64,000 bases of DNA. Origin: Motiliproteus sp. Lineage in GTDB: Bacteria > Pseudomonadota > Gammaproteobacteria > Pseudomonadales > Balneatricaceae. Shown piece by piece: positions 388-53,769 of the stretch. Below the pieces are notes generated by a model. It was not told where the DNA came from. It saw only the letters and a list, made by a program, of their open reading frames with translations, and searched no databases. The stretch lies in assembly GCA_965230185.1 (NCBI GenBank), contig OZ245995.1:1849583-1913582 (forward strand), in the 5' to 3' direction. Each line of letters opens with the position of its first letter. Within the stretch, counting starts at the first letter, position 1. The position numbers and the translations under genes are program-made.

Positions 388-420
388 AAAAAAAACCACC
401 TGCAACACAGGTGGTTTTTT
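388..420. terminator. Bidirectional rho-independent terminator downstream of the adenylating-enzyme operon
   Basis: The stem ACCACCTG / CAGGTGGT has a 5-nt loop. It is flanked by an A-run (388-395) and a T-run (415-420), and lies 8 nt past the stop at 428-430. Confidence 0.8.
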
Positions 421-427
421 CTTCAGA

Positions 428-1999
428 TCAACTGGCAGTGAGCTCTCGTTTCAGCTCGTCTTTGTTGATCTTGTTTTTATCGCTCTGCACCAGTGGCAAG
501 GACCGTTTATAGACCACCCGACCCGGGATCATATAGGAAGCCAGGTGCTTCTTGAGTTCAAACAGGATCTCCTTCTCAGAGATCTCACTGACCGATGAGT
601 AGACCATCACAATCTCTTCTTCGATAAGCTCGTTCTCGATGCCAAAGACCGCGCACTGGTCAATCTGCGGGATATTCCTGGCGACAACAGATTCGACTTC
701 GTAGGGAGAAACCCGGAAGCCTCTGGTCTTTATCATGTCATCATGTCTTGAGACAAAGTATAAATATCCCTCTTCGTCTTTATAGACGTAATCCCCGGTC
801 GCCACCACGAGTTCATCGGTCAGCTGACCTTCCAGATTGATAGCATCTTTGAGAATCTGAACCGATTTAAAGCGCAGTGCATTCTGCTCCGGCGCATTCC
901 AGAAACCACGGTAGATATAGCCGCCTCGATGGATCAGTTCACCTACTTCACGGACGCCACATTCTTTACCATCTTCATTGAGCACATAGAGCTCAACATC
1001 CGGAATCGCTTTACCGATGGAGTCCGGTCTGATCTGAACCTGTGAAGGATCAAGGTAGGTTGAGCGAAATGCTTCGGTCAGCCCGTGCATGGAGTAGAAG
1101 TCCGCCTTCTGGAAAGTCTTCTTGCAGTCTTTGATCATTCTGGCTGTAACATTGCCACCCGAGGAGGTAATGGTTTTGACGCTGTCAAACAGCTCCGGGC
1201 TTGGTATCCGTTGCAGGTCCTCATCAAACATCTGCGAAATATTCACGGGCATCAGCGGCAGAACAGTGACTTTGTCGTTGATCAGGTGATTAAAGAAGTC
1301 TTCCGGCAGAATAAACCGATGCAGTGCAAGCGTGGCTCTTTTATAGAGTGCGCAGAATATCTGATTTAATCCGTAATCAAGATTAAAGATCAGTAACCCT
1401 GAAATGACGTCATCTTCTTCCAGCTTCAGGTATTGAGAGACGACTCGGGCCGAATCGATCAGGTTCCGATGGGAAATAACGATCCCTTTCGGCGTTCCGG
1501 TCATGCCAAAAGAGTAGGTGATAACCGCATTATCATGGCCATTTACATCACAAATATACGGCTTGTTGTAGTATTTGTAGATCTCTTCAAATGAGGCGAT
1601 CTCTTTGGCCGTGGTTTCGTAGGAAATAATGTGGCCGTCAAAATCAATCTCTTCAATGCTTTCAAGCTTCAGCTTGTCTGTGATAATGCACTTAATATCA
1701 CAATCGTTAATGATGTACTCAACCTGTTCAGATTTGAGCATCTTTGTCAGCGGAACCAGGATGTAATCCGTAGACAGAATCGCGAGGATCGCTACAACCT
1801 GCTCAATACCCTTATTGGAATAGACTCCGATGCGGGTATCTTTTGGAAGCCCCAGCTCATTTAAATAGAAGGCTACCTGATTTACCCTGGTATAGAGTTC
1901 ATCATATGTAATGCTCTGATCATTAAACACCACAGCGGTTTTATCGCTGTGAGTCTGCACTGCCCCTTCAAGAAGCGCTCTGATACAGTTTATTGACAT
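428..1999 (-). CDS. Adenylate-forming enzyme (AMP-dependent synthetase/ligase, stand-alone A-domain-like)
   Basis: This 523-aa ORF has a P-loop-like motif SFGMTGTPKG and a core motif GDYVYKDEEGYLYFVSRHDDMIKTRGFRVSPYEVE. Its start overlaps the upstream gene's stop by 10 nt, consistent with an operon. Confidence 0.85.
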   Translation of the reverse strand: MSINCIRALLEGAVQTHSDKTAVVFNDQSITYDELYTRVNQVAFYLNELGLPKDTRIGVYSNKGIEQVVAILAILSTDYILVPLTKMLKSEQVEYIINDCDIKCIITDKLKLESIEEIDFDGHIISYETTAKEIASFEEIYKYYNKPYICDVNGHDNAVITYSFGMTGTPKGIVISHRNLIDSARVVSQYLKLEEDDVISGLLIFNLDYGLNQIFCALYKRATLALHRFILPEDFFNHLINDKVTVLPLMPVNISQMFDEDLQRIPSPELFDSVKTITSSGGNVTARMIKDCKKTFQKADFYSMHGLTEAFRSTYLDPSQVQIRPDSIGKAIPDVELYVLNEDGKECGVREVGELIHRGGYIYRGFWNAPEQNALRFKSVQILKDAINLEGQLTDELVVATGDYVYKDEEGYLYFVSRHDDMIKTRGFRVSPYEVESVVARNIPQIDQCAVFGIENELIEEEIVMVYSSVSEISEKEILFELKKHLASYMIPGRVVYKRSLPLVQSDKNKINKDELKRELTAS

Positions 2000-3192
2000 G
2001 ACTCTTTTCCTTTCGCGCCAAGCGTCCAGATATCGTAGTTAGTATCCAGAACAACTACAGGCTTGTGATCTGAGGTAAGAATTTTCTTATAGAAGAATGA
2101 CACGATATCTTCTATCTCTTCAGTGGTTAATACCTTGGTAATACCGCCGGTCAGCACCAGCGAATTTATCGCCAGCAACTTCAGGTTGACGTAGGCCTTG
2201 CGGTAATGGGAAATCTTACACAACACCAGAAAAACGGCGAGTTGCATCAATATCTTAGTTGCTTTTGCACTCTGCTCTTCAAAGATGTTCTCTGTTACTT
2301 TCAGATGCATCAGCAACTCATAGACAAACTCGTTATTCTTTGCTGCAAAAATCAATGACTGCTTTGATTTGTACACGCCCAGTTTTTTGAAAACGAGTCG
2401 GTCATATTCGTTTCTGGTCACGATATTATCGGCAACCAGGTCTTTTGAATAATGGACGTCTGTGGTAGCACCGCCAATATCAAGAAGTACGAAAGGATTC
2501 ACGACAGAATACCGTGCATCAATTAGTGGCAGCGCTTTATTTACAATGTATGGCGTTGAATAGATCTGATTGTCGGTAATATCATACAGATGCTTGATAT
2601 CTTCTTTACCTTCAATATCCTGCTGGTAAAGGTTAGTGAGATACTCTTTCAGTGCGTCTTCGACGATATGCAGTTTGTTGTCGATGATGTTTGGCAGAAT
2701 CACGACATCTTCAATATTCTCTTTTACTGCCGGAGCATCCTGCTCGCTGCCCACAAACACAATGTTGGAGTACTTCAGCTGATCAAGGTATCGATACAAG
2801 CTATCAGAAAACATACCGGCACATGAATCGATACCGCCCACCACAATAACGACATCGATAAGATCACTCGGCAGCGAGTACTCCTCTATATTCTGATAGA
2901 GGACCGTATCAATGATGTTGATGCCGGAATTGAAGGCGATATTAGTCGCATACTTCAGCGAATAGGAGTTTGTGATACCGATAATCAGCGTGCTTAAACC
3001 ACCGTTTGCAGACGAGCAGATATGCACATCATTTTTATCAAAGCGATCGATCGTATCGCCGCATTTATTGACCAGATCATCCAGAATATCCTTATTGAAA
3101 TCTCTGAAGTGCTGCTCAATACTGTTGGATGTGCTGACCTTGAAATAGGTACTGCCAACGTCAATAAGCAACTTGTCGTTATCCTGGCTCAT
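1990..3192 (-). CDS. glmL: GlmL/MutL-like glutamate mutase accessory protein (actin-fold ATPase)
   Basis: This 400-aa ORF has an N-terminal LLIDVGSTYFKV motif and an LLDIGGATTDVHY motif, both typical of GlmL/MutL-type ATPases. It shares an ATGA overlap with the upstream GlmE-like gene. Confidence 0.7.
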   Translation of the reverse strand: MSQDNDKLLIDVGSTYFKVSTSNSIEQHFRDFNKDILDDLVNKCGDTIDRFDKNDVHICSSANGGLSTLIIGITNSYSLKYATNIAFNSGINIIDTVLYQNIEEYSLPSDLIDVVIVVGGIDSCAGMFSDSLYRYLDQLKYSNIVFVGSEQDAPAVKENIEDVVILPNIIDNKLHIVEDALKEYLTNLYQQDIEGKEDIKHLYDITDNQIYSTPYIVNKALPLIDARYSVVNPFVLLDIGGATTDVHYSKDLVADNIVTRNEYDRLVFKKLGVYKSKQSLIFAAKNNEFVYELLMHLKVTENIFEEQSAKATKILMQLAVFLVLCKISHYRKAYVNLKLLAINSLVLTGGITKVLTTEEIEDIVSFFYKKILTSDHKPVVVLDTNYDIWTLGAKGKESCQ

Positions 3193-4553
3193 TGCATAAT
3201 TCCTATATCGTGAACAATATCATTGACGATACTGGTGGTATCTTTGGTCAAATCACACTGTGCTTTCTCATACTCGTAACAGCGGTCCGGAATAGGAACA
3301 TTTGCTCGCTTGATAATTCTGATGTTTTTATTGGCATCCCTGATAGTAATCATCTCGTTATGATTGATGATATGCGGTGAAAAAGGCACATCGATAATGC
3401 CGCTTTTTATCGAGTTGAAGACTTTCCGCCATAGCGTATCCGCCGGATCATTCAATACCGCCTCCATAATGGCTTTGACTTCCAGCGTCAGAATCTCTTC
3501 TTCCTCTTCGTCAACAACCTTCGGCAGTCCATTCAGTATGCCCAGAGTGTACTGAGTGTTGGCCACGGTCTTGGCATTGGCTTCTTTAGTCGGAATGCCC
3601 GCCGCCTCTTCCCGGGTTTTGGTGATGATCTTGTCGGCCCCCACCATGGCCGCAATCACCGTGGACATATTGATCAGCTGTTCGGCGTAGTCTTTATTGG
3701 TTGGGAAGGCGCCCATCCACTGGTGATATACCAGATGGATTGCCGCATCGGAGCAGTTGATCTGCTCGGCGTAGTAGCTGGCCAATTTCTTGATGACGGC
3801 CCCGGTGACGATATCCTGGTTCATGGAACCGGTCTGGGAAAATGAAACCGAGAAGGACTTAACACCCTCTTCCAGTGACAGCAACATCTCCAGCAGCTGA
3901 ATCACGATCGTGATGGCGGGTGGCACCAGGGTTGCGGTAAGCGGGCCAAACGATTCCCGATTGATCGGCAGATTCAGCTCCGAATAGTTGGCACAGACCC
4001 GTTCCACATACTTCCAGTACAGGAAGGCTTTATCCAGAGGAAAGTTCTTGGAATAGGGCAGGAGATAGGTAATCGGCCCGCCTTCTATCTCGAAGATACC
4101 GGATGCAATCGCTGTCTCGATCAGCAATCGGGCATCGGGAGTACCGTGTCTTAAACTCACCGGTTTATTGAAGTGAGTGATCATCTTGCGTGTCGTTCGA
4201 TAGCCATGATTAACCAGGGGATAACCATTGAGCATATCGATATCGTTTTCTTCGCTCAGCCGCAGCATTTTGCTTGCCGTAGCGTAGTCATTCAGGCGTG
4301 TATTGGAATCAATGGTCAACGGCAGAACGTCGACGTTAGCCTCGACAAAAAACTCATTCAGGGCAAACTGCTTTTTATAAGTGGGAAACCCACCCCTTGG
4401 CTGAACAAGCATCTTATTTCTGTTTTTGAAATGATGCGATATAAAGAGTTCTTTGTTGGCGTTTTTTACAAATTCTGTTACTTCGGCAAAGTCGAAAGTA
4501 TCAACATATTCATTGCTAAGAATTATTTCTCTTTCTTCTTGAAGCAAACTCAT
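3189..4553 (-). CDS. glmE: Glutamate mutase epsilon (large, catalytic) subunit-like protein
   Basis: This 454-aa ORF resembles the methylaspartate mutase E chain along its length (for example VQPRGGFPT, LPLTIDSNTRLN, SLRHGTPDARLL, EGGPITYLLPYSK). It shares ATGA overlaps with the genes on both sides. Confidence 0.75.
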   Translation of the reverse strand: MSLLQEEREIILSNEYVDTFDFAEVTEFVKNANKELFISHHFKNRNKMLVQPRGGFPTYKKQFALNEFFVEANVDVLPLTIDSNTRLNDYATASKMLRLSEENDIDMLNGYPLVNHGYRTTRKMITHFNKPVSLRHGTPDARLLIETAIASGIFEIEGGPITYLLPYSKNFPLDKAFLYWKYVERVCANYSELNLPINRESFGPLTATLVPPAITIVIQLLEMLLSLEEGVKSFSVSFSQTGSMNQDIVTGAVIKKLASYYAEQINCSDAAIHLVYHQWMGAFPTNKDYAEQLINMSTVIAAMVGADKIITKTREEAAGIPTKEANAKTVANTQYTLGILNGLPKVVDEEEEEILTLEVKAIMEAVLNDPADTLWRKVFNSIKSGIIDVPFSPHIINHNEMITIRDANKNIRIIKRANVPIPDRCYEYEKAQCDLTKDTTSIVNDIVHDIGIMQ

Positions 4554-4963
4554 TCTTTATTTCTCTTTTCTATAAATGCTTCCAGAGCGTCCAGGCCGGT
4601 ATTGAGGTCAACCTGGTGGCAAACCAGATCAAAACCGTAGTTTTTGTACCTGGGCACAATCTCTTCCGCATTTCCACTACCAACAACCAGATTGCCACCA
4701 ATCATCATAATCAGGTTGTCTAAATTCTTATATTTTGCCTTGAGAGGCTTAACCTCGCGGCTCCACCCCTCCGCTTCCCCGTTCAGGGAGGAGATCAGCA
4801 GGACATCCGCGCCCGTCTCAACCGCCGCATCAAAGAACTCTTCCAGGTAGGTGTTGACACCCAGATTAAACACTTCGAAGCCTCTGGCTCGCAGCGATAG
4901 GTCAATGAGTCGATTAGCGACGACATGGATGTCGTTACCAACTACGCCTGTAACTACCTTCAT
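4550..4963 (-). CDS. glmS: Glutamate mutase sigma (small, B12-binding) subunit-like protein
   Basis: This 137-aa ORF has the same length and layout as GlmS/MutS. It carries the B12-binding-domain motifs GNDIHVVAN (DxHxxG-like, but ending in Ala), ISSL (SxL) and IGGN (GG). Confidence 0.75.
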   Translation of the reverse strand: MKVVTGVVGNDIHVVANRLIDLSLRARGFEVFNLGVNTYLEEFFDAAVETGADVLLISSLNGEAEGWSREVKPLKAKYKNLDNLIMMIGGNLVVGSGNAEEIVPRYKNYGFDLVCHQVDLNTGLDALEAFIEKRNKE

Positions 4964-5071
4964 ATCTTCTCTGGCCCAGGATGTAAAAGGCGCTATGATA
5001 GCAAAGCGCTGTGCAAAAAACGGCTACATGGTGCTAGAATTGTGCGCCAAAATTGGGAACAGGAAGCTTTT

Positions 5072-5551
5072 ATGTCGTTTTTTACAGCCGATATCTGTGA
5101 TGAGTACAGCGAGAAGGTATCTGTGCTAGGCGCAGGCTACAAAAACTATGGTGGTGCCGACAAATGCCAGGGCGAGATCGTCACCGTAAAGCTGGACAGG
5201 AACAACTCTGAACTCATCAGGCTACTGAGAGATGAAGACGGCACCGGCAAAGTTGTCGTAGTCGATGTCGATCGCGAATACTATGCCGTCGTCGGTGAAA
5301 ACCTGATGAAGTTTGCTCTGCAGAACAACTATGCAGGCATTATCGTCAACGGTTACATCAGAGATACCGAACAAATAAAGGATATTCCTGTTGTCCTGTA
5401 TGCGCTGGGTACCTGTCCGCGTAAATATATCCCTGTTACAGAGGGTGAAAAAGACGCGCAGTTATCCTTCGATGGAATTGAATTTAACAGTGGTGATTAC
5501 CTGTACGCCGACACCGATGGCGTGATTGTTACCGCCGGGAAGATCGTATAA
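5072..5551 (+). CDS. RraA family protein (RNase E regulator / HMG-CHA aldolase / oxaloacetate decarboxylase family)
   Basis: The product is 159 aa from the internal ATG at 5072, which has an AGGAAG Shine-Dalgarno site 7 nt upstream. MSFFTADICDEY...GEIVTVK...GKVVVVDV...GENLMKFALQNNYAGIIVNGYIRD aligns with the RraA fold. The longer ORF starting at 4925 overlaps the divergent gene. Confidence 0.8.
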   Translation: MSFFTADICDEYSEKVSVLGAGYKNYGGADKCQGEIVTVKLDRNNSELIRLLRDEDGTGKVVVVDVDREYYAVVGENLMKFALQNNYAGIIVNGYIRDTEQIKDIPVVLYALGTCPRKYIPVTEGEKDAQLSFDGIEFNSGDYLYADTDGVIVTAGKIV

Positions 5552-5581: not shown

Positions 5582-5619
5582 AAAAAAGCCGCCGCTAATA
5601 ACATTAACGGCGGCTTTTT
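5582..5619. terminator. Bidirectional terminator between the convergent rraA-like and aspC-like genes
   Basis: The stem AGCCGCCG / CGGCGGCT has a 13-nt loop, with an A-run on the 5' side and a T-run on the 3' side. Confidence 0.8.
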
Positions 5620-5651: not shown

Positions 5652-6842
5652 TTACTTCAGCACGGCAGCAATCGACCGGGTCAGATAATCAACGTTATCC
5701 GGGGATACACCGGCAAGGTTAATGCGACTCGAACCTACGATGTAGATACTGTACTCATCCTGCAAACGCTGGATCTGCTCAGGATCGATACCCAGAAATG
5801 AAAACATACCATTCTGTCGGGTAATAAAGCTGAAGTCCTGAGTAACGCCATTCTCTGCAAGTTTATCAACCAGCAGTTGTCGCATACCGCCAATGCGGTC
5901 ACGCATCTGTTTCAGCTCATCGTGCCACTGGCTGGTAAGCTCATCTGAACTCAGGATCGTTTCTACGATTGCCGCACCGTGGGCTGGCGGCATGGAGTAG
6001 TTAACCCGAACCACTGTCACCATAACCGCACCGATGATATCCGCCGCGCTGGCATCTTTACCGATAATGGAGCAGGCACCGATGCGATCACGGTACAGAC
6101 CAAAGTTCTTTGAACAGGAGCTGCAGATGATCATCTGCTCGACCGTATCCGCCATCAGCCGCAGACCGTAAGCATCGACATCCAGGCCCTGTCCAAACCC
6201 CTGATAAGCAATATCGATAACCGGGGTAAAGCCGATATCTCTGGCCAGTTCAGCCACCTGTTGCCACTGATCCTGATTGAGGTCCATACCGCTGGGGTTA
6301 TGGCAGCAGGCATGGAACAGTACCGCATCTTCTTCCGGAATCTGCTTCAGCGCTTCAACCATGCCGGCAAAATCCAGGCATTTGTTCTCATAATCGTAAT
6401 AAGGATAGGTTTTTACGTTGAGGCCGGCGGCCTTGAAGACACCCTGGTGGTTTGCCCAGGTCGGGTTGCTCACCCAGATAGTCGCACCGGGCTTGCTTCT
6501 GTTTATCAGTTCACCGGCGATGCGTAATGCCCCCGTGCCGCCGGGAGTCGATACCGTGCGGACACGGTTGTCACGAATAACCTTATGATCACCCAGTACC
6601 AGCGAGGCTATCTTGTCATTGAATAACGGAGAGCCTGTAGAGCCCAGATAGATCTTACTGGCTTCGTTATCAACACGAGATTGTTCAGCAGTTTTTACAC
6701 AAGCTAAAACTGGCGTATTACCAGCCTCATCTTTGTAAATACCAGGACCAAGATCAATTTTGCTCGGGTTGCTATCGGCTTTAAATTTGACCGATAGACC
6801 CAGAATCGGATCAGCTGGCGGTTGCTGTAACTGAGAAAACAT
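5652..6842 (-). CDS. aspC: Aspartate/aromatic amino acid aminotransferase (class I, AspC/TyrB family)
   Basis: This 396-aa ORF is collinear with E. coli AspC (PADPILGL, GIYKDEAGNTPVL, SKNFGLYRDRIGA, NYSMPPAHGA). Confidence 0.9.
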   Translation of the reverse strand: MFSQLQQPPADPILGLSVKFKADSNPSKIDLGPGIYKDEAGNTPVLACVKTAEQSRVDNEASKIYLGSTGSPLFNDKIASLVLGDHKVIRDNRVRTVSTPGGTGALRIAGELINRSKPGATIWVSNPTWANHQGVFKAAGLNVKTYPYYDYENKCLDFAGMVEALKQIPEEDAVLFHACCHNPSGMDLNQDQWQQVAELARDIGFTPVIDIAYQGFGQGLDVDAYGLRLMADTVEQMIICSSCSKNFGLYRDRIGACSIIGKDASAADIIGAVMVTVVRVNYSMPPAHGAAIVETILSSDELTSQWHDELKQMRDRIGGMRQLLVDKLAENGVTQDFSFITRQNGMFSFLGIDPEQIQRLQDEYSIYIVGSSRINLAGVSPDNVDYLTRSIAAVLK

Positions 6843-7243: not shown

Positions 7244-8161
7244 TCAGGTCTTCTGAAGCTCTTCCAGCCAGGTACTCAGGACCAGATTGGGGCGGGCGCC
7301 CTTGCGGGTGATGGCGGAAAACTGGGTGATGTAGTTGAACTGGTGGGGCAGCAGCGCTCGCATTTTACCCTCTCTGACCCAGCGGTCCGCCAGATGGACC
7401 GGCAGAAAGCCGATATAGCGACCGGTCAGAAGCAGAAAGGCGATGCCCTCGCGGTCAGTGGCGGTGGCGCTGTCCTTCAGCTGCTGGTGCAGGGCCTTGA
7501 TCTCGGCGGTCTGGGCGTAGGCCGGCACCACGGCATCGCATTCGGTGATCTGCTCGGTGCTGAGGCTGTCATTGTCGATTGCGAACAGCGGATGGTCGGC
7601 GCTGCAATAGAGTCGTGATTCCTCCTCATACAGCGGCAGGTATTCCAGTCCCGCCAGGGTGCGCAGGTCGGGTACCACACCCACATGGAGCTGACCGTCC
7701 AACACCGCCAGTTCGATCTCGTTGGGTGGAATCATGCGGATATGAACCCGTACGCCGGGGCCTTTGTCTTTGAGGATCGCCAGTGAGTTGGTGATCCGCA
7801 TATGGGGCATGGTGACCAGGTTGTCGGTGATGCCGATATTCAGGTCCCCCTTCAGCTGGGCGTGCAGCGCATTGACCTGGGTGCGGAAATCCTCCAGTGA
7901 GGCCAGCAGTTGCAGGGTCAGTTCGTAAACCTCCCGGCCCTCGTCGGTCAGCGAAAAACCGGAGCGCCCGCGCTGGCAGAGTCGGAAGCCCAGTCGGGTC
8001 TCCAGGTCCGCCATGGAGATGCTGATGGCGGCGCGGCTGATATTGAGTTCCACCTCGGCAGCGGAAAAGCCACCACACTCCACCACGGTCCGATAGATCC
8101 GCAGCATCCGCAGATCGACATCGCTGAGTCGGCCGGTAAACTCTTTTTTACGAATTGCCAT
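7244..8161 (-). CDS. LysR family transcriptional regulator
   Basis: This 305-aa ORF has an N-terminal HTH (LRMLRIYRTVVECGGFSAAEVELNISRAAISISMADLETRLGFRLCQR) and a LysR substrate-binding-type C-terminus. Confidence 0.85.
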   Translation of the reverse strand: MAIRKKEFTGRLSDVDLRMLRIYRTVVECGGFSAAEVELNISRAAISISMADLETRLGFRLCQRGRSGFSLTDEGREVYELTLQLLASLEDFRTQVNALHAQLKGDLNIGITDNLVTMPHMRITNSLAILKDKGPGVRVHIRMIPPNEIELAVLDGQLHVGVVPDLRTLAGLEYLPLYEEESRLYCSADHPLFAIDNDSLSTEQITECDAVVPAYAQTAEIKALHQQLKDSATATDREGIAFLLLTGRYIGFLPVHLADRWVREGKMRALLPHQFNYITQFSAITRKGARPNLVLSTWLEELQKT

Positions 8162-8295: not shown

Positions 8296-9801
8296 TCATG
8301 GGATCGCTGAACGCGAACTCGAAAACAGCAGCGGTCGCAGAATCTCCGCCAGTGCACCGATGCCTTTTTCCATCTGCGGCCGATCGAAGCCGGCAAACCC
8401 GATGACCAGCCCCTGTGGTTTTTCCGCCGTTGAGTAGAACAGCGACAGGGGGCGAATACCCAGTCCGGCGGCTTCTCCCTGGCGACAGATCTGTTGATCG
8501 CAACAGCCATCGGGCAGCAGAAAAACCGAGTGCATACCACCGTCGCTTTGCTCGGGTTTCAGTCGATCGCCGAAACGGTTGGCCATCAGCTGGTGCAGCA
8601 GCTGACGTCGCTGCTGATACAGTTTACGCATTCGCCGTACGTGACTGACGAACTGACCGCTGGCCATAAACTCCGCCAGAGCCAGCTGCGGTAGCAGCGA
8701 CAGGCCGCCGTCGATGTAACGGCGGGCGTTGCGGAACAGATCGATCAGCGATTCCGGCAGCACCAGATAACCCAGTCGGATCGACGGGTGGAGGATGCGG
8801 CTGAAGGTACCGGTGTAAAGCACGGTCGATTCTCCATCCAGTCCCTGCAGCGAGGTCAGCGGAGGCCCGTCAAAACGGATCTCGCTGTCGTAGTCATCTT
8901 CGATAATCCAGCCGCCCCGAGCGGCGGCCCAGTTAAGCAGCTCTATACGTCGCTCCAGACTGAGGGTGTAGCCCATGGGATAGTTGCGCGACGGTGTCAG
9001 CAGGGCAACGCGGGCATCAGCAGCCAGCGCCAGCCCCCGCTGTAACTGAAAACCGTCCTGATCGGCCGGGACCGAAATTTTTGCGGCACCGGCTGCGGCC
9101 AGCGCCCCATCAACGCCGTAATAGCCGGGGTCCTCCACCAGCACCGGCTCGCCGGCGTTGACCAGCAGCTGCAATGCCAGATACATGGCCTGCTGCGAGC
9201 CGGAGCAGATCATCACCTGCCGGGCATTGCAGCGGACGCCCCGGGTGATCTGCAGATAGCTGGCGATCTGTTCACGGAGCAGCTCGCTTCCCATGCCGGA
9301 CTGACCGGGTTCATGCTTCATGCGTCGTCCAGCCATCGTCACATGGCGCTGCCACTGTCCCCAGGGAAAACTGCTGACACAGGGGCTGGCGGGCAGCATA
9401 AGTCTGCCATTGGGCTGATGAGCGCTGCTCCCCAACTGGTCCAGTCGTTGTGCCAGTGCCGACAGCTCGGGCAGAGGGCGGGCAGAGCGGTTTTCACCGG
9501 TATCGCTGATGGCGGTGGGCTGTTGGTCCGGCAGGCTTCGGGATACGAAGCTGCCGGAGCCGTGCCGGGTCTCAATATAGCCTTCGGCCAGCAGCATTTC
9601 CCAGGCGGCCCGCAGGGTGTTGCGGGAGACACCCAGGGCTTCGCCAAGGGGGCGACTGGCGGGGAGACGGGTGCCCGGCGAAAGCACGCCCTGGAGAATG
9701 GCCTGCTGAAAGGCGCGAAACAGCCGCAGATATTGCGGTCCGGACTTTTCCGACTCCAGGAAAGGCAGAAACAGTTCCGATGAGAAGGCTGATGATCGCA
9801 A
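8296..9801 (-). CDS. MocR-type regulator (GntR wHTH fused to a class I aminotransferase-like domain)
   Basis: This 501-aa ORF has a GntR HTH (LPASRPLGEALGVSRNTLRAAWEMLLAEGYIETRHGSGSFV) followed by a roughly 350-aa PLP-fold domain. Confidence 0.85.
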   Translation of the reverse strand: MRSSAFSSELFLPFLESEKSGPQYLRLFRAFQQAILQGVLSPGTRLPASRPLGEALGVSRNTLRAAWEMLLAEGYIETRHGSGSFVSRSLPDQQPTAISDTGENRSARPLPELSALAQRLDQLGSSAHQPNGRLMLPASPCVSSFPWGQWQRHVTMAGRRMKHEPGQSGMGSELLREQIASYLQITRGVRCNARQVMICSGSQQAMYLALQLLVNAGEPVLVEDPGYYGVDGALAAAGAAKISVPADQDGFQLQRGLALAADARVALLTPSRNYPMGYTLSLERRIELLNWAAARGGWIIEDDYDSEIRFDGPPLTSLQGLDGESTVLYTGTFSRILHPSIRLGYLVLPESLIDLFRNARRYIDGGLSLLPQLALAEFMASGQFVSHVRRMRKLYQQRRQLLHQLMANRFGDRLKPEQSDGGMHSVFLLPDGCCDQQICRQGEAAGLGIRPLSLFYSTAEKPQGLVIGFAGFDRPQMEKGIGALAEILRPLLFSSSRSAIP

Positions 9802-14255: not shown

Positions 14256-15719
14256 ATGCTCAATCACCTCTTTCATCTCTCACCGGACAGCGAGTCCAGT
14301 CTGCAGCAGCAGGTGCGGGAGCAGATTTCCGCGGCCATTCTCGACGGTCATATCCCGCTGGATGTACCGTTGCCCTCGACCCGCAAGCTGGCGGAGATGC
14401 TGGGCATTTCCCGCAATACGGTGATTCTGGCGTATCAGCACCTGATGGACGACGGCTACCTGGTATCCCGGGAGCGAGCCGGCTTCTACGTCAACGAGGA
14501 GATCCTCAAAGGTAATATCCGCGATGACGTCAGGGTCTGCGTCAAGCCCTCATCGCCGCCGGACTGGAACAGGCATCTGAAGAACAGACCCACCGAGCGC
14601 AAGCTGAACAAGCTGCACAACTGGCAGGCCTATCCCTATCCGTTTATTTACGGACAGCTGGATCCTGATATGTTCCCCACCAATCACTGGCGGGAGTGCT
14701 GCCGCGATGTGGGGAGTGTTCAGGCGATCCGGGACTGGGCCAGCGACTGTTACGATGAAGACGATCCGCTGCTGATCGAGCAGATTCACTCCCGCATCCT
14801 GCCCCGGCGCGGTGTCTGGGCCGATCCCGATCAGATCCTGATTACCGTGGGGGCGCAGCATGCCCTCTATATGGTGTTGCGGTTACTGCTGAACAGCTCC
14901 ACCACCATGGGGCTGGAGCAGCCGGGGTATCCGGATGTCACCCGGATAGCCGGTTGCACCGGGACCGCTACCCGGGATCTGGAGGTGGATCAGGACGGTC
15001 TGGTGGTGGATGATCAGCTTAACGGCTGCGATCTGATTTTCACCACGCCCAGCCACCACTTTCCCACTACGGTCACCATGCCGCTGGATCGTCGGGTAGC
15101 GCTGCTGGACAGGGCTTCATCGGAAGATTTCCTGATTATCGAAGACGATTACGAGTGTGAGACCAGCTTCGCCGAGCAGCCAACACCGGCTCTGAAGAGT
15201 CTCGATCGCAGTGACCGGGTGATCTATCTGGGCAGCCTCTCGAAGACCCTGGCGCCGGGATTACGGCTTGGCTATATGGTCGGTCCGCGGGAGCTGATTC
15301 AGGAGGTGCGTGAATTTCGGCGGATGATGATGCGTCACCCGCCCATGAACAATCAGCGGGCCATCGGCCTGTTTCTGGCCAGAGGTTACCACGACTCTCA
15401 GATTCGCAGTCTGGTGCAGCTCTACGAAGAGCGCTGGAAAGTACTGGGTGAATCGCTGCAGGCCTGTCTGCCGGAATCCGCCAGACCGCCGGTGTTCGGT
15501 GGTTCTGCCTACTGGGTCAGGGGGCCGGAAGGGCTGGATGCCCGGGAATTGAAACGGCGAGCGCTGGAGCGGGGGGTGGTGATCGAATCCGGCGATATCT
15601 ATTTCCATGGTGATAACCCGCCGCTTAATTATTTCCGCCTCGGCTACTCCTCTATTGCCACCGAACGTATCCGTCCGGGGATTGATCGGCTCGCCGAGAT
15701 TATCAGTGACCTGACCTGA
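14256..15719 (+). CDS. MocR-type regulator (GntR wHTH + aminotransferase-like domain), second copy
   Basis: This 487-aa ORF has the HTH LPSTRKLAEMLGISRNTVILAYQHLMDDGYLVSRERAGFYV followed by a PLP-fold domain. Confidence 0.85.
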   Translation: MLNHLFHLSPDSESSLQQQVREQISAAILDGHIPLDVPLPSTRKLAEMLGISRNTVILAYQHLMDDGYLVSRERAGFYVNEEILKGNIRDDVRVCVKPSSPPDWNRHLKNRPTERKLNKLHNWQAYPYPFIYGQLDPDMFPTNHWRECCRDVGSVQAIRDWASDCYDEDDPLLIEQIHSRILPRRGVWADPDQILITVGAQHALYMVLRLLLNSSTTMGLEQPGYPDVTRIAGCTGTATRDLEVDQDGLVVDDQLNGCDLIFTTPSHHFPTTVTMPLDRRVALLDRASSEDFLIIEDDYECETSFAEQPTPALKSLDRSDRVIYLGSLSKTLAPGLRLGYMVGPRELIQEVREFRRMMMRHPPMNNQRAIGLFLARGYHDSQIRSLVQLYEERWKVLGESLQACLPESARPPVFGGSAYWVRGPEGLDARELKRRALERGVVIESGDIYFHGDNPPLNYFRLGYSSIATERIRPGIDRLAEIISDLT

Positions 15720-47816: not shown

Positions 47817-47974
47817 GTCTTCGGTGACCGGTTTCGGCGCTGTTATTTGAGCCCCCGGTTGGGTTAGAATCTGTTCCTTTACGGACCGGTCCGGCCCCCT
47901 GAAAGGCCCCTGCCTTTTGCCTCCTGATGCTGTGCAGGGCGGACCTCCTTCTGCAACTCTCAATAGGAAAATTC

Positions 47975-49441
47975 ATGCTTTTCAATAAGCTTCCTGATGA
48001 TCTGTTTCTGCCGTTATCGGGTCAGAATCGGTTTATCTACCAGGCAGTCTTGGTGGAGCTGGCGGATCTGTTTTTCGATGAGGATCTGATCGATCCCTTT
48101 ATTCCCCGGGATCTGGTCCGCTCTACCATCGAGGAGGCGGTGATTAAGCACGGCATCCGCAGCTGGGTTCCGGAAGGGGAAGAGACCGAGGAACAGGAAG
48201 CGCCCCGCTCAACCTCCGAATACGCCAGTCGTATCTACCGTCGGCTGGTGAAGACCGGCTGGCTGGATGAGGAGCAGCAGCTGTACCGCACCTATGTGCT
48301 GATGGCGCCTTCCATCAGCTACCTGCTACGTACCCTGATGCAGGTCGCCACCTTCCAGAAGAAGAGTTACGGCGGTGCCGTGCTGAACGTACTGAGCTCG
48401 GTGGAAGCGGCGATTAAGGATCCCCAGGGCCGTGGTCTGACCCTGCAGGAAGCGGCCCGATCGGCGGCGGAGTTCAGTGCCCACCTAACCGATATGTTGC
48501 TGGGACTGCGGGAGCTGAAACAGAGCTTCGCCGCCACCAGTAATCCCCAGGAGATCGTTAAGGGGTTCTTCGAGCAGTTTGTTGAGGCGATCCTGGTCTC
48601 CGACTACAAGACACTCAAGACCCATAACAACCCCTTCCGTTTCCGCCGTCAGCTGCTGGGAATGCTTAAAGAGTTGCAGTTTGACGAGGGCCGGCTGTCA
48701 ATGCTGATTCAGCACTATCAGGAGGTGCTGGAACTGGGTAATGCCGAAGCGGAAGCGAAGGTCCATAAACATATTTCGCGGATTATCCGGATCTTCGAAT
48801 CGGTGGATCAGCGGCTGGCGGCCATTGATGACTTCCGTTTCCGACTCGAAAAGCGGGTGTCCGATACCGTCCGTTATATGGACAAGACCACCCCGGGTAT
48901 GAGCTCCAGGCTGTCGCGGCTGATTGCCCGGCTGGCCGAGCAGGACGAAGAGAGCCTGCCGCTGGCCGATACCCTGGAAAGCTACGCTTTTCTGTCGCCG
49001 AAGAGTGTACGCAGCGCACCACGGCGCCGGACGCCGCCGACCCTGAAGATTATTCAGCAGAAGGTGATCGATCCGGAGGTGCTGGCCATGCGCCAGCGCT
49101 TCAAGGAGTACAAGGAGCGTCGTCAGATTACCGGGCCCAGACTGGACGCCTATATCGAACGTCATCTCGACGGTGGTGAGCGAATCAACGCCGGTGAATT
49201 CCGTATCGATTCCATCGAGGATTACATCTGTTTCAGCTATGTCCGCCATATCGCTTCGCTGGGTAACAAGGCAAAGAACATTCAGGGCAAATACCAACTT
49301 CAGTTTAAGGACCGCTATGTCAGCATCTGCGACATGGTGGAATGTCGGGACTTTACACTCTTGAAAAATCCAGATTTTAAGCCGTCGGATAAAGCACCGG
49401 CGGACAGCACTGCAGCCAGAGGAAGTCAGCATGCTCGGTGA
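47975..49441 (+). CDS. mksF: MksF/JetA-like kleisin-type subunit of an MksBEF condensin-like complex
   Basis: The product is 488 aa from ATG 47975, which has an AGGAAA Shine-Dalgarno site. The call rests on its position and size upstream of the mksE and mksB homologues and on the 11-nt overlap with mksE. Confidence 0.6.
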
Positions 49442-50195
49442 TCTTAAGAAAATTCTCAGCCGCTTTGAGCAGGTGGATGAAGAGGACTTTACCATCGCGG
49501 CCAACAAGCTGCTGGTCAACCAGTTCCTCTATGCCGACAAGCCGTCGCACCGGCCCCACTATTTTCTGATTTCCACACACGTGGAGTACTTCACCAACCT
49601 GTTTGCCGCCATCGGCTGGTCGCTGACCTGGCAGCCGGACGAGTCCTTTATCGGCCTGATCCCGAAAGGCGAGGAGCGTTACCTGCGTCTGCGTCTGGAT
49701 GAATCGCTGTTTCTGCTCTGTCTGCGTCAGCAGTATGAGGAGCGACTGGAGAACTTCGATGTTGAAGGTGGCAAGGCCTTTATCCATTCCGATGAGCTGC
49801 TGCAGCTGTATGAGAACCTGACGGCCAAAGAGATCCCCAACGAAACCCGCTATAAGGAGATCCTGTCGCTGTTCAGCCGTCATGGCATTATTGAGCGTGG
49901 CCGGCCCGCTGAGACCGACCCCAAGAATGTCCCGCTGATGATCAACCCGTCGATCCGTCAGGTGGTGGTTGAGGACTGGGTGCGTCAGCTGGAGGAGCTT
50001 GGTGATACCGCCGAAGAGCTGGAAAACGAGGCGGCTGCCGAGGAGGAACTGGCGGCTCAGGACGCTGAGTCGGCACCGGTGGCGAATAAGGCCGGAGAGA
50101 CAGATGCTAAGGCAGCCGGCGCTGAAGATGTGATCGCCGAAGAGACGCAACAGACAGAACAGGCCGGGGAGGTTGTCGATGAAGCTGCTCAATAA
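49431..50195 (+). CDS. mksE: MksE/JetB-like (DUF4194-type) subunit with an acidic C-terminal tail
   Basis: This 254-aa ORF contains [39 protein letters not shown]...[18 protein letters not shown]. It overlaps the genes on both sides. Confidence 0.7.
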
Positions 50196-53100
50196 GATCG
50201 TACTGGTTAACTGGTACGTGCTGGGGGCGGTCGAGATCCCCATTCGCGGCAATGTCGCCATCGTTGGCCCTAACGGCTCCGGTAAATCCTCGCTGCTGGA
50301 TGCGATCCAGACCGTGCTGGTCGGTGGCAATAAGCGCTACCTGAGTTTTAACGCCAGTGCCGGCCAGAAGAGCGAGCGCAGCCTGCGCACCTACTGTCTG
50401 GGCTTTCTGGATGATCATAGTGGCGGCCGGGCCAAGTCCCGGGAAGACTCGCTGACCTACCTGGCGATGGAGTTTAAAGATCAGGAGAGTGGTCAGTGCG
50501 ACACCGTCGGTCTGTGCATCAGTGCCTCGCTGGCGACACCGGAAGAGGAGGTGGAAGGCCGCTTTGTGCTGCCGAACACCACCGTTACTCTCGACGATTT
50601 TACCCGTCAGGAGCAGGGCGGCCGTATTCCCCGACCCTGGCTGGAAGTGCGGGAAGCTCTGCGTCAGCAGTGTCCGGAGATGGTGCTGGAGAAGCGCGCC
50701 AGCCGCTTTATCCGTGAAGTGATGGCCCAGCTCAGTGCTGACCGCGCGGTACCGGTGGACGACGAGAAGTTCCTCAAGAGTTTCCGCAACGCCATCAAAT
50801 TCACCCCCATCGACAGCCCCACCCGCTTTGTCCGCGAGTACGTGCTGGATCACAAGCTGGTGCAGGTGGGCGACTTCCGCAAGTCGCTGGAAGAGTACCG
50901 GGCGATGGAGCAGAAGACCCTGGAGGTCTCCAACCGGATCGAGGAGCTGGAGAAGGTTCAGGAGCTCTGTCACGGGGTTCGTCGTAATGCGAAAAATGCC
51001 GGCGAGTACGAGTGGGTGGTTCACGAGACTCGCTTTGAGGAGGCGGACCTGAAGAAGGAATCCGTCGAAGAGAAGCTGGAAAAGGAGCAGGAAAAGGAAG
51101 CCTCGCTGCAGGCCGACGCCGACCGGCTGGAACAGGAGCTTAACCGGCTGATGCAACAGCTGGCCGATACCCGCGCCGAGCTCAATAACTCCGATCACGC
51201 CAACCGGGTCAAGGAGCTGGAGCTGAAGATCGACGCCAAACAGCACGAGCTGGGAGTGGTGAAGGACAAGGTAGCCGGCATCTATAACCTGCTGCGTTCC
51301 ACGGTCGGCTTTGCTCATCATGAGAAACTGCTGCCCAACGCTTTTATGGATGTGGTCAAAGAAGGGGTCGAACTCTGGCGCCAGGGCGAAAACCTGCTCG
51401 GCTCGGTATGGCCGGAAGAGCCCGTAGCCGTGGATAACTGCCTCGAGCAGCTGAAGAAGCAGATAGACGGCGTACGACTGGAGGTTTCCCGTCAGTTCGA
51501 AGGGGCGGTAATCGACCTCAGCGCCATGCGGCAGCGGCTGGAGGGCCATCAGGGGGCTATCGAACAGCTTAAGCAGGGGCGGGCGCCGCTGAAGAAAAAC
51601 ACCCGGGAGCTGATTGCGCTGCTGGAGGAGTATGGCATTGAATCGACCCCGCTCTGTGAGCTGACCGAGGTTAGTGATGATCGCTGGCGCACCGCCATCG
51701 AAAGTTTCCTGGGTAACCGCCGGGAAGCGCTGATTGTCGATCCCGATCGGGTCAAGGATGCGATCACCCTGTATCGCCGCCGTGCCCGTCACCTGAAGGG
51801 CTGCCGGATTGTAAACACCACCAAGAGCGAGCACTGGCTCAACCGTTCCAAGCCCGGATCGCTGGCCGAGTACGTGGACTGCGATAACAGCCATGCGCTG
51901 GCTTACATCAACCGCACCCTGGGCGGAGTGATGGCGGTGGAAACCGAACAGGAGTTGCTGCGCCATGAGCGAGCGCTGACCTGGGACTGCATGCTGCAGA
52001 CCGAAGGCGCCACCACCTCGATCCACGAGCAGGCGCCGATGATGGGCAGCCGTCACCGGGAGAAACAGCTGCTGCAACAGGATCAGGATTTCGAGCGGTT
52101 GCAGGCGAAGTTCAGCGAGCAGGAGGCGGAGCACAAAGCCCTCGATAACCTTAAGGACTCGCTGATCAAACTGACCGCCGCGCTGACCGGGGTGACCGAG
52201 AGTACTTACAGCCTGGTTAACGACCGGGAAATGCTGAACGCCGAAGTCGAAGGGTACCGCCAGGCAATTCAGGATATTCGCAATCAGGATGATACCGGTA
52301 TCCAGCAGCGTCTGAGCCAGCTGGTCGAGGAGCAGAGCCTGACTCAGGCCGAGCATCAGAAACTGGTGGATCAGCTGAAATCGCTGGCCACCAGCAAGAT
52401 CAAGCGCGAAGCCAGCCTGGAAGTGTTGCAGCAGGAGCTGGAGGAGCATGCCGCTCAGCGCAGCAAGTGTGAGGACAAACCGGACTTCGACGCCGGGTCG
52501 GCCCAGGAGAAGCGCGATTATCTGGAGGAGTCCTGCGCCGGCGAACTGGAGCGGATTATCTTCGACGCCGCCCGCAAGGCCCAGAACGAACTGACCCTGG
52601 TGGAGAAGAAGAAAAACTCGGTGCGTGACGCGGTGGCGCAGTACAAGGCTCGCTACCACGGTTCCGGGATGACTCACCAGGAGCTGGACAATGTCACGCC
52701 GGAGTCCACTCATACCGAGCTTGAGAGCTTCGTGATCGCCACCACCGACGCCCTGAAACAGACCGAGCTGGCCCACTATACCAAGAAGGCGGAGCGGGCC
52801 CGGATCGAAGCGGAAACAGCCTTCCGTTCCGACTTTGTGGCGCACCTCAACGATCAGATTGACCGCATCAAGGAGCTGATCCGCGAGCTGAACAATCACC
52901 TCAAGTACCGTCCCTTCCATAAGGAGATGTACAGCTTCACCATGACGCCCAATCCGGAGCTGAAGGATGTACTGTCACTGGTGGAAACCTTCTCCCGGGC
53001 GGACCAGGCGAACGCCGGCGGACTGTTCGATTCGGCATTGGATGCCAACTCGCCCCACCGTGAGGCGCTGGAGCGTATCCATGAAGTGCTCAAGGATGAA

Positions 53101-53658
53101 GGTGAGGCCAGTATTCTGCAGGACTACCGGAACTTCTATAACTTCGAGCTGGTGATCAAGGACCTGGACGGCAATATCAAGACCAACCTCTCCCAGCGGA
53201 TCAAGACCGGTTCCGGTGGTGAGCATCAGGTGCCGTTCTACGTAGCCATTGCCGCCGGTCTCGGTGCCACCTACCGCCTCAGGCGGACACCGGAAGGCAA
53301 GCCGCTGGGCGGCTTCAGTCTCAGTATGTTCGACGAAGCCTTCAACAAGCTGGATGCGGAAAACACCCAGACCTCGCTCGGCTTTATGGGCGATCTGGGG
53401 CTGCAGACACTGATCGCAGCGCCGGACGACAAGTACTCGCTGATGGCTTCGGTGATGGATACGGTGATCAACGTCTGTCGCGACGGCAGCATCGTTGACC
53501 TGGATGTGGAATTCCCCATGGCCCGGGGCAAGGCGCTGCTGGATTCCGACAATCCCTACCGGATGGCGCGGGAAGCCCGAGAGGCCCGGAAGGCGGCTGA
53601 ACAGGGTGCAGAGCAGTCAGGCGGCGCGCCGGAAACCAATGAGGCTGAGATCGCCTGA
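50179..53658 (+). CDS. mksB: MksB/JetC-like SMC-family ATPase
   Basis: The product is about 1159 aa. It has Walker A (GPNGSGKSS) at the N-terminus, long coiled-coil regions, and the signature GSGGEHQ and Walker B (LSMFDEAF) at the C-terminus. The ATG at 50179 follows a GGGAGG site. Confidence 0.85.
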
Positions 53659-53714
53659 GTCATGGGCCGGTAAACACGTATTCCCGGCACGTTGGTTCAG
53701 CTGGTAATGAGCAA

Positions 53715-53745
53715 GGGCCTGATCTTCGGATCAGGCCCTTTTTTT
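53715..53745 (+). terminator. Intrinsic terminator after mksB
   Basis: GGGCCTGATC-TTCG-GATCAGGCCC followed by TTTTTTT. Confidence 0.9.
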
Positions 53746-53769
53746 ATGTTTGCGGTCTGTTGAGGTCTG

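Follow-up and report, generated by a model that had tools for sequence, protein, structure and literature searches.

A conserved gene cassette of marine bacteria joining glutamate mutase to a stand-alone adenylating ligase, with a candidate role in 3-methylaspartate activation

Glutamate mutase, an adenosylcobalamin-dependent enzyme, is found in anaerobic glutamate fermentation, in the haloarchaeal methylaspartate cycle and in a few actinomycete antibiotic pathways. In the clostridial system, the mutase genes stand in the order S-L-E. Herein, a glutamate mutase cassette of marine bacteria is described, starting from a stretch of 64,000 nucleotides (nt) of Motiliproteus sp. DNA (GenBank assembly GCA_965230185.1, contig OZ245995.1, positions 1,849,583 to 1,913,582 of the forward strand), which was analysed as a whole and is referred to below as the window. 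In this cassette, glmS, glmE and glmL lead into the gene of a stand-alone AMP-forming ligase and are accompanied by a divergent rraA-like gene and, in Gammaproteobacteria, by an aspC-like aminotransferase gene. The original prediction, made from the letters of the window alone, had proposed a four-gene operon whose mutase product, 3-methylaspartate or a related branched amino acid, is adenylated by the ligase.

The glutamate mutase of Clostridium cochlearium shares with the cassette enzyme a small B12-binding, His-on subunit, the arginine claw together with Glu171, Tyr177 and Tyr181, and an actin-fold L protein. The cassette differs from the clostridial system in its S-E-L gene order, in a sequence identity of about 35-37%, in the lack of methylaspartate ammonia-lyase and mesaconase, in its hosts (marine Gammaproteobacteria and Campylobacterota) and in the joining of the mutase to a ligase and an RraA-like gene. 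The vicenistatin system (VinH/VinI with VinN), and likewise the streptolydigin system (SlgE1/E2 with SlgN1), resembles the cassette in combining a glutamate mutase with a stand-alone adenylation-domain (A-domain) enzyme. VinN is also the nearest relative of the cassette ligase in the pocket segment, where the Asp, the aromatic residue at 231, Ser299 and Arg331 are shared. However, the vicenistatin system possesses an acyl carrier protein (ACP; VinL) and a decarboxylase (VinO), whereas the cassette is without an ACP, a pyridoxal phosphate (PLP) decarboxylase, an acyltransferase or a polyketide synthase (PKS); it resides in Gram-negative marine bacteria and is far better conserved than secondary-metabolite genes.

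A further route, from glutamate mutase toward isoleucine, was reportedly described biochemically in Escherichia coli W by Abramsky and colleagues in 1962. As quoted in a passage of a later paper, this pathway to 2-ketobutyrate and isoleucine needs the mutase, a beta-methylaspartate transaminase and the decarboxylation of beta-methyloxaloacetate (Abramsky et al. 1962, cited in PMC7476758). The cassette encodes candidates for all three steps, whereas the route itself is without an ATP-dependent ligase step. In the haloarchaeal methylaspartate cycle, glutamate mutase likewise operates outside fermentation, in aerobes, with 3-methylaspartate as a central compound (PMC8307300). That cycle runs via methylaspartase, CoA-transferase, hydratase and lyase steps, and no gene for these enzymes was found in or near the cassette.

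Altogether, the gene combination matches no described system, though each enzyme belongs to a known family. The absence of methylaspartase sets it apart from the fermentative pathway and from the haloarchaeal cycle, and the lack of carrier protein, decarboxylase and PKS sets it apart from the vicenistatin/streptolydigin type. These absences, which had already been reported in the original prediction, hold for the window, where methylaspartate ammonia-lyase, carrier protein, PKS or nonribosomal peptide synthetase (NRPS) and PLP decarboxylase were not found among the 37 annotated open reading frames (ORFs). They hold equally for the neighbors of the cassette in 82 surveyed loci, among which no carrier protein, PKS/NRPS, PLP decarboxylase, methylaspartase or mesaconase was found. 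Full-text literature searches found no description of this gene combination. The earlier suggestion of a small pathway not characterized in Gram-negative bacteria had not foreseen the cross-phylum spread and extreme conservation of the cassette.

Gene content, distribution and conservation

Four minus-strand ORFs in the order S-E-L-ligase overlap their neighbors by 4, 4 and 10 nt (S-E, E-L and L-ligase), at the positions first given, and Pfam and NCBIfam profiles assign the four genes to their families. The neighborhood survey covered 82 non-redundant loci, linkage being counted only where the loci reach far enough. In almost every one of these loci, glmS still overlaps glmE, and glmE still overlaps glmL, by 4 or 1 nt. 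The ligase gene comes after glmL in 72 of 73 loci, 73 of 76 have an rraA-like gene upstream, and 41 of 68, essentially the Gammaproteobacteria minus the main Vibrio clade, have an aspC-like gene next to the cassette genes; in Vibrio and in Campylobacterota, the aminotransferase gene is not in the cassette. The sole ligase-less locus (L063) has housekeeping genes in the place of the ligase and no alternative enzyme, and the other cassette neighbors are lineage-specific across the survey. DNA homology between the window and the other cassettes spans 435..~7035, which is exactly six genes. A divergent Campylobacterota subclade, whose ligase is 60% identical, retains the core of rraA, glmS, glmE, glmL and ligase. 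The genes and overlaps first proposed are confirmed and the link between mutase and ligase is supported, but the conserved unit is larger than four genes: the rraA-like gene and, in Gammaproteobacteria, the aspC-like gene belong to it.

The cassette region is low in guanine plus cytosine (GC), as had been pointed out before, with 0.42-0.49 against about 0.58-0.60 across most of the window; the GC content rises to 0.6 at ~7250, beyond the cassette block. A search for flanking repeats and integration signatures around this low-GC island yielded none that was convincing. The best explanation of the arrangement is that the four genes probably form one operon within a larger, self-contained and horizontally spread cassette, which is composed of the aspC-like gene, the divergent rraA-like gene and glmS-glmE-glmL-ligase.

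With GlmE as the query, a protein search gave 2591 relatives, and the best 120 of these 2591 are all 91-95% identical; named sources among the best 120 include Amphritea, Colwellia, Thalassotalea, Litorilituus and Sulfurimonas (Campylobacterota). In a scan of one genome per species, 440 stretches were confirmed to encode a relative, and the cassette is carried by hundreds of species of marine bacteria. Within the best 80 loci of that scan, GlmE identity is 87-95% in Gammaproteobacteria and Campylobacterota, and the hosts include Vibrio, Halioglobus, Spongiibacteraceae, Reinekea, an Osedax symbiont, Arcobacteraceae and Marinarcus. Two metagenome-assembled genomes among these 80 loci, labelled Cryomorphaceae (L042) and Parasphingorhabdus (L048), are the only carriers outside Gammaproteobacteria and Campylobacterota. 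Their GlmE sequences are nested within Halioglobus/Cellvibrionales clades, and the two may represent binning contamination, not transfer to Bacteroidota or Alphaproteobacteria. A neighbor-joining tree groups the Campylobacterota in a single clade that is nested within the spread of gammaproteobacterial lineages. No cassette-clade GlmE was found in the PLSDB plasmids, every GlmE match there being <40% identical.

The nucleotide identity of the cassette between loci is only 71-82%. All six genes were found to have a nonsynonymous divergence (pN) of 0.03-0.12 and a synonymous divergence (pS) of 0.59-0.93, with synonymous sites largely saturated. This saturation rules out recent transfer as the cause of the high protein identity; because pN is low as well, the identity reflects very strong purifying selection on all six genes after old transfers. 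By contrast, a gamma-glutamyltransferase encoded in the high-GC portion of the window reaches at most 80% identity to its nearest relatives, and 72% to Alkalimarinus, the nearest named genus. With this one gamma-glutamyltransferase as the comparison, the cassette proteins are judged to evolve at about the slow pace of the best-conserved housekeeping proteins. Such a degree of conservation points to an important function, as yet unassigned.

Amphritea genomes hold two clearly different cassette lineages (L001/L007 and L015/L034), and the window groups with L001/L007. The window genome (GC about 0.58) is itself not Amphritea-like by its gamma-glutamyltransferase, which is nearest to those of Alkalimarinus and Litoribacillus (about 72%). 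In several Campylobacterota loci, toxin-antitoxin pairs of the Phd/ParE, RelB/YafQ and MNT/HepT types adjoin the cassette (L020:186-783, L085:2044-2684 and L086:11669-12959). L086 also has insertions within the cassette: a two-component system separates rraA from glmS, and two small genes separate glmE from glmL. The cassette neighborhood is an insertion hotspot while the five core genes persist. Furthermore, in L002 (7504-8984) and 10 other Campylobacterota loci, mostly Sulfurimonas, a TRAP-type DctP gene follows rraA on the same strand, usually with a very acidic 114-aa protein encoded between the two. This neighbor may link an imported dicarboxylate or amino acid with the cassette.

Mutase, ligase and accessory proteins

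GlmS matches the NCBIfam model PRK02261 (methylaspartate mutase subunit S) with 151 bits, over a cut-off of 110, and the Pfam B12-binding model with 47 bits. The base-off/His-on motif DxHxxG...SxL...GG is present, with Gly replaced by Ala at A16, and the residues D11-I-H13-V-V-A16, S58-S-L60 and G89-G90 are invariant in 79/79 sequences. GlmE was matched to the Pfam model Met_asp_mut_E (PF06368) with 389 bits (cut-off 27) and to the glutamate mutase structures 6H9E/1CB7 in the PDB with E = 1e-80. Nine of its residues (R53, R86, R135, H136, E157, Y163, Y167, K312 and E316) are invariant in 82/82 cassette homologues and correspond to C. cochlearium R66, R100, R149, H150, E171, Y177, Y181, K326 and E330. 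From the C. cochlearium structures, we take R66, R100 and R149 to be the arginine claw and K326 and E330 to be cofactor-side residues. This mapping bears out the earlier identification of the large subunit as a true GlmE relative. GlmE is about 35-37% identical both to the C. cochlearium enzyme and to its closest plasmid-borne matches, with weaker plasmid matches down to 25%. GlmL matches the Pfam MutL model with 86 bits, while the NCBIfam GlmL models match weakly (70 bits against a cut-off of 475); its phosphate motifs DxGSTYFK and DxGGATTD are invariant in 79/79 sequences.

The ligase was matched to the Pfam models AMP-binding (214 bits) and AMP-binding_C (30 bits), and the ANL core motifs SFGMTGTPKG, HGLTE, TGDYVY and KTRGFRV were found in it. 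The best PDB matches of the full-length protein are NRPS A domains, and the amino-group-binding Asp (VinN D230 / GrsA D235) is kept as D208. On these two grounds, the ligase is predicted to be of the amino-acid type and not of the fatty- or aryl-acid type, the specificity that the original prediction had named as speaking against it. When a pocket fragment (ligase residues 173-367) was used as the query, the top PDB match was VinN (3WV4/3WVN, E = 3e-11), followed by 5N81, a chain of tyrocidine synthase 1 (TycA), at 8e-7. The latter is TycA engineered for beta-Phe, and VinN takes (2S,3S)-3-methylaspartate as a beta-amino acid via D230, F231, S299, K330 and R331 (2024 review, PMC11253843). These five VinN residues align with D208, Y209, S280, F311 and R312 of the ligase, a match at 4/5 positions, and all five ligase residues are invariant in 74/74 cassette ligases and also in the divergent subclade. 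This VinN-like pocket is the strongest support for the proposal that the ligase would accept the mutase product as its putative substrate.

An AlphaFold2 model of the ligase has a mean predicted local distance difference test (pLDDT) score of 74.6, but residues 304-420, the specificity loop among them, score below 50. A Foldseek search with this model returned generic ANL enzymes without discrimination. In a search of a representative library with the ligase, giant NRPSs dominate; the one single-domain relative, P0123, is 60% identical and adjoins glmL.

The start of the rraA-like gene was placed at M50 of a 208-aa ORF, which gives a protein equal in length to all homologues. This protein scores 118 bits against the Pfam RraA-like model and 144 bits against NCBIfam PRK09372 (cut-off 136), a model for RraA, the protein inhibitor of RNase E, and 103 bits against the enterobacterial model TIGR02998, below its cut-off of 241. 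In sequence, it is closest to small RraA proteins (Pseudomonas aeruginosa 3C8O, E. coli 1Q5X). Its R97-D98 dyad and E76 are invariant in 75-76/76 cassette proteins; at these positions E. coli RraA has R-Q and Ala. E76 stands 21 residues before R97 and is replaced by Asp in P. aeruginosa RraA and by Gly in T. thermophilus. We take it to occupy the D/G site in the D/G-X20-R-D motif of RraA-like aldolases, which was reportedly described by Mazurkewich et al. in 2014.

By alignment, R97-D98 corresponds to Arg-123/Asp-124 of HMG/CHA aldolase, in which Arg-123 is catalytic as enolate stabilizer and Asp-124 is a metal ligand, and which also decarboxylates oxaloacetate (PMC5065237). Other RraA-family proteins are enzymes as well, for instance a dehydratase/decarboxylase in alginate catabolism (PMC8563752). 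The cassette protein shares with HMG/CHA aldolase the RraA fold and the Arg-Asp dyad. It differs in being nearer to the small RraA proteins, in passing the RraA equivalog cut-off, in having Gln at the second motif position (E/D after RDxx) and in lacking an aromatic-degradation context. The RraA-like protein is presumed to be a metal-dependent class II lyase/decarboxylase.

The aminotransferase scores 564 bits against NCBIfam PRK09257 (cut-off 377), 440 bits against E. coli AspC (1AAW) and 311-315 bits against TyrB. It keeps an Arg in the RxNYS motif and another in the C-terminal SRIN motif, which we take to be AspC Arg292 and Arg386, the dicarboxylate-binding pair. Scores against the AspC chains 4F5F-4F5M (442-452 bits) are slightly over the 440 bits obtained with 1AAW and other E. 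coli AspC chains; the 4F5x entries are presumably engineered aromatic-accepting AspC variants. In addition, V and M stand at the sites taken to be AspC A293 and N297, which hints at a modified side-chain pocket.

Proposed reactions and competing explanations

In the explanation favored here, GlmS and GlmE with adenosylcobalamin would convert L-glutamate to (2S,3S)-3-methylaspartate, as suggested by family membership and the intact active site, and GlmL would serve as an ATP-dependent reactivase of the mutase. The glutamate mutase equilibrium favors glutamate over methylaspartate (PMC8307300), so 3-methylaspartate must be drawn off by an irreversible step. Given its VinN-like pocket, the ligase would treat 3-methylaspartate as a beta-amino acid and adenylate it, probably at C4, and the activated acid would pass to an acceptor encoded outside the cassette, candidates being CoA, a housekeeping carrier and a small nucleophile. 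The chemistry suggests a second exit, in which the transaminase would turn 3-methylaspartate and 2-oxoglutarate into 3-methyloxaloacetate and glutamate. The RraA-like protein would then decarboxylate 3-methyloxaloacetate irreversibly to 2-oxobutyrate and CO2, a step for which the old glutamate mutase pathway offers a model. This whole scheme, ligase activation together with the second exit, is given a probability of roughly one half. As to the earlier claim that the mutase product is adenylated, the pocket nearest to that of VinN, with its four matching residues, lends it partial support; the A10 lysine, however, is not kept in most relatives, and the ligase-independent exit to 2-oxobutyrate had been overlooked. 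More tentative is a broader proposal, namely that the cassette is a complete, previously unrecognized B12-dependent marine pathway. It would lead either from 2-oxoglutarate to 2-oxobutyrate/isoleucine with an unexpected ATP step, or to an unknown small metabolite derived from 3-methylaspartate via carrier-independent adenylation.

Several observations weigh against the favored scheme. By all sequence-level criteria GlmS and GlmE look like a genuine glutamate mutase, yet they form a distinct subfamily, since GlmE scores 371 bits against the NCBIfam equivalog TIGR01503, just under the cut-off of 390; given this score and the 35-37% identity, the mutase may have an altered substrate. Over the full length of the ligase, VinN is only the 13th-best PDB match. 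Its K330 is replaced by Phe (F311). VinN-type enzymes have a beta13-beta14 loop one residue shorter than that of A domains for alpha-amino acids; across this loop the ligase-VinN alignment is gapless, but sequence by itself does not set the loop length against GrsA, and in the AlphaFold2 model residues 304-338 have a pLDDT below 50. Furthermore, the best NCBIfam match of the ligase, at full length with 441 bits and E = 6e-132 (cut-off 592), is the exosortase-associated family TIGR03098 (acyl-CoA ligase, AMP-forming, exosortase A system-associated). This family is not known to have an assigned substrate. The cassette ligase stays below the cut-off of that model and is without its context, as no exosortase, PEP-CTERM or decarboxylase context was found beside the cassette in the survey.

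The A10 motif adds to these difficulties. The catalytic A10 lysine (GrsA K517) is present in the window ligase as K510, within a stretch of residues 506-513 (window about 461-484, minus strand). Among the 74 ligases, only 20 have K at this position, against 30 with Q, 14 with R, 6 with L and 2 each with I and S. The motif GK(I/V)D(K/R) is clear in the divergent Campylobacterota subclade and variable in the main marine clade (54/74 non-K), which is odd because the rest of the ligase is under very strong purifying selection. K508, which is K in 66/74 ligases, may substitute for the A10 lysine, or else the adenylation chemistry may depart from the textbook case. In addition, no carrier protein or acceptor for the ligase was found in the 82 loci. 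Finally, the two exits are not joined in one pathway, and whichever of them is taken, the ligase or else the RraA/aminotransferase pair is only partly accounted for.

The tight linkage of rraA, which at 73/76 equals that of the ligase, lends some weight to a different view of the cassette, in which its true job is the glutamate-mutase route to 2-oxobutyrate for isoleucine and the ligase is auxiliary, for example in side-product removal or in the activation of 2-aminobutyrate. The AspC-like enzyme would aminate 2-oxoglutarate with 3-methylaspartate as donor, the mutase would act next, and the RraA-like protein would decarboxylate 3-methyloxaloacetate, so that 2-oxoglutarate would yield 2-oxobutyrate and CO2 with no ATP or NADPH. 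This stoichiometry would close with the cassette enzymes alone. The aminotransferase keeps the two Arg that we take to be the dicarboxylate-binding pair, and the Arg-Asp dyad of the RraA-like protein is that of an oxaloacetate-decarboxylating enzyme. Moreover, the glutamate-mutase route is counted as one of nine leading to 2-ketobutyrate, and the cited passage names no genes for it (PMC7476758). We nevertheless consider this explanation unlikely, as it offers no reason for a coupled, near-universal 523-aa ligase with an invariant pocket for an amino acid bearing an extra carboxylate, and the aminotransferase is not in the Vibrio or Campylobacterota cassettes. A variant of the methylaspartate pathway with a catabolic or anaplerotic role is considerably less probable. 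In this variant, the ligase, with putative use of CoA, would stand in for methylaspartase and CoA-transferase. The C4 CoA thioester of 3-methylaspartate would lose ammonia to give mesaconyl-C1-CoA, from which beta-methylmalyl-CoA and then glyoxylate and propionyl-CoA would be formed by enzymes encoded elsewhere. No ammonia-lyase, hydratase or beta-methylmalyl-CoA lyase was found beside the cassette in the 82 loci, and the RraA-like protein and the aminotransferase would have no role. Such a variant would nonetheless accommodate the lack of methylaspartase in the annotated window ORFs and in the surveyed loci, and the dicarboxylate CoA ligases MatB and oxalate-CoA ligase are among the PDB matches of the cassette ligase. 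VinN-type regiochemistry would activate the very carboxyl that becomes C1 of mesaconate, and the methylaspartate cycle runs through mesaconyl-CoA (PMC8307300).

It is a shade less probable still that the mutase acts on a substituted glutamate built by the RraA-like protein, as an aldolase, and the aminotransferase, and that the ligase activates the rearranged product. Pyruvate would be joined to glyoxylate or to a second pyruvate to form a 4-hydroxy-2-oxo acid, and transamination of this acid would give 4-hydroxy- or 4-hydroxy-4-methyl-glutamate. Class II pyruvate aldolases of the RraA family do make and cleave 4-hydroxy-2-oxoglutarate derivatives (PMC5065237), the distance of GlmE from known GlmE proteins and its score just below the equivalog cut-off would fit, and all six genes would be used in a single line. 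However, every known glutamate-holding residue of GlmE is unchanged, with no sequence sign of a larger pocket; the aldol condensation is thermodynamically weak, and a mutase substrate of this kind is without precedent. As for a precursor sub-cluster of a vicenistatin- or streptolydigin-like pathway whose carrier and PKS/NRPS lie elsewhere in the genome, we regard it as very improbable. Outside the cassette, the pairing of a mutase with an enzyme that adenylates 3-methylaspartate is known from pathways of this kind alone (VinN, SlgN1; PMC11253843), but no carrier protein, PKS or NRPS was found within 8-10 kb in the 82 loci. In the small genomes of chemolithoautotrophs (Sulfurimonas, about 2.8-2.95 Mb), the cassette is surrounded by housekeeping genes, and a cross-phylum conservation of 87-95% is atypical of secondary-metabolite genes.

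If the favored scheme of 3-methylaspartate formation and activation holds, it would show the use of 3-methylaspartate by a carrier-less amino-acid adenylating enzyme; if the isoleucine route proves to be the true one, genes would be attached to a 60-year-old glutamate-mutase route. With either identity, a new and widespread cobalamin-dependent function would be added to marine B12 ecology, and the function of the cassette, once found, would provide a new reason for marine bacteria to need vitamin B12. These proposals are directly testable in cultured strains, such as Sulfurimonas gotlandica GD1, Amphritea balenae, Thalassotalea fonticola and several Vibrio isolates.

Feature coordinates, control region and neighboring loci

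Table 1. Genes and control elements of the cassette, in window coordinates.
Feature	Position	Strand	Size	Remarks
glmS (GlmS/MutS-like B12-binding subunit)	4963..4550	-	137 aa	
glmE (GlmE-like catalytic subunit, adenosylcobalamin glutamate mutase)	4553..3189	-	454 aa	
glmL (GlmL/MutL-like actin-fold ATPase)	3192..1990	-	400 aa	presumed mutase reactivase/chaperone
Stand-alone ANL adenylating enzyme	1999..428	-	523 aa	presumed 3-methylaspartate-activating ligase, VinN-like pocket
Divergent rraA-like gene	5072..5551	+	159 aa	presumed metal-dependent class II pyruvate-aldolase/beta-keto-acid decarboxylase
aspC-type aspartate/aromatic aminotransferase gene	6842..5652	-	396 aa	cassette member in Gammaproteobacteria
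Divergent control region between rraA-like gene and glmS	4964..5071	.	108 bp	
Intrinsic terminator 3' of ligase gene	388..420	-		CCACCTG-loop-CAGGTGG, flanked by A-run and U-run
Hairpin between convergent rraA-like and aminotransferase genes	5583..5619	.	17-bp stem	bidirectional terminator-like

The control elements of the cassette are included in Table 1. Between rraA and glmS, the commonest spacing is 108-109 nt. In 63 aligned rraA-glmS intergenic regions, drawn from Gammaproteobacteria and Campylobacterota, the blocks ATTCTAG..CA and TTTG.TATCAT are kept in at least 80%. The window has two promoter-like elements of the extended -10 type placed back to back, TGCTATCAT at 5003-4995 on the minus strand and TGCTAGAAT at 5032-5040 on the plus strand; by consensus, the former looks like the promoter of the glm operon and the latter like that of the rraA-like gene. 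These elements surfaced only in the cross-species alignment and were missed by a promoter scan, in which sigma-70 matches were below chance (8 vs 10.8 expected). An Rfam search gave no family match in the control region, cobalamin riboswitch included, and none elsewhere in the window except three tRNAs at 46.4-46.7 kb; two small RNA matches stayed below threshold.

The terminator after the ligase gene, which had been read directly from the letters, was supported by RNA folding. The stretch 388-420 folds with -21.9 kcal/mol (z = -5.58), and 0/200 shuffled sequences were equally stable. Past the ligase stop codon, the sequence runs AAAAAACCACCUG-UGUUG-CAGGUGGUUUUUUUU, and the A-run and U-run around the hairpin could allow termination in both directions. 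The hairpin at 5583..5619 came from the terminator scan and was also recovered as inverted repeat I2, with 94% complementarity. Small ORFs downstream of the ligase gene in the surveyed loci were considered as carrier proteins and rejected, as they correspond to cytochrome c, ribosomal protein L31, a ferritin-like protein (a call made by eye) and toxin-antitoxin genes.

On the other side of the cassette in the window, the low-GC island is immediately bordered by a LysR regulator gene (7244-8161, minus strand), and two regulators of the MocR type (GntR with an aminotransferase domain) lie nearby at 8296-9801 (minus strand) and 14256-15719 (plus strand). The LysR and MocR neighbors are not kept with the cassette in other genomes. 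Farther along the window, a Wadjet-type defense locus was found at 47927-54684 on the plus strand. It is made up of JetA (47927-49441; PF18982, 301 bits), DUF4194/JetB (49431-50195) and the SMC-like JetC (50173-53658), and a 281-aa ORF without a Pfam match at 53839-54684 could be JetD. Finally, a DDE transposase gene (PF01609; 22567-23913, minus strand) lies within a stretch of lower GC (about 0.50-0.55, 19-26 kb), which suggests a second foreign segment in the window.

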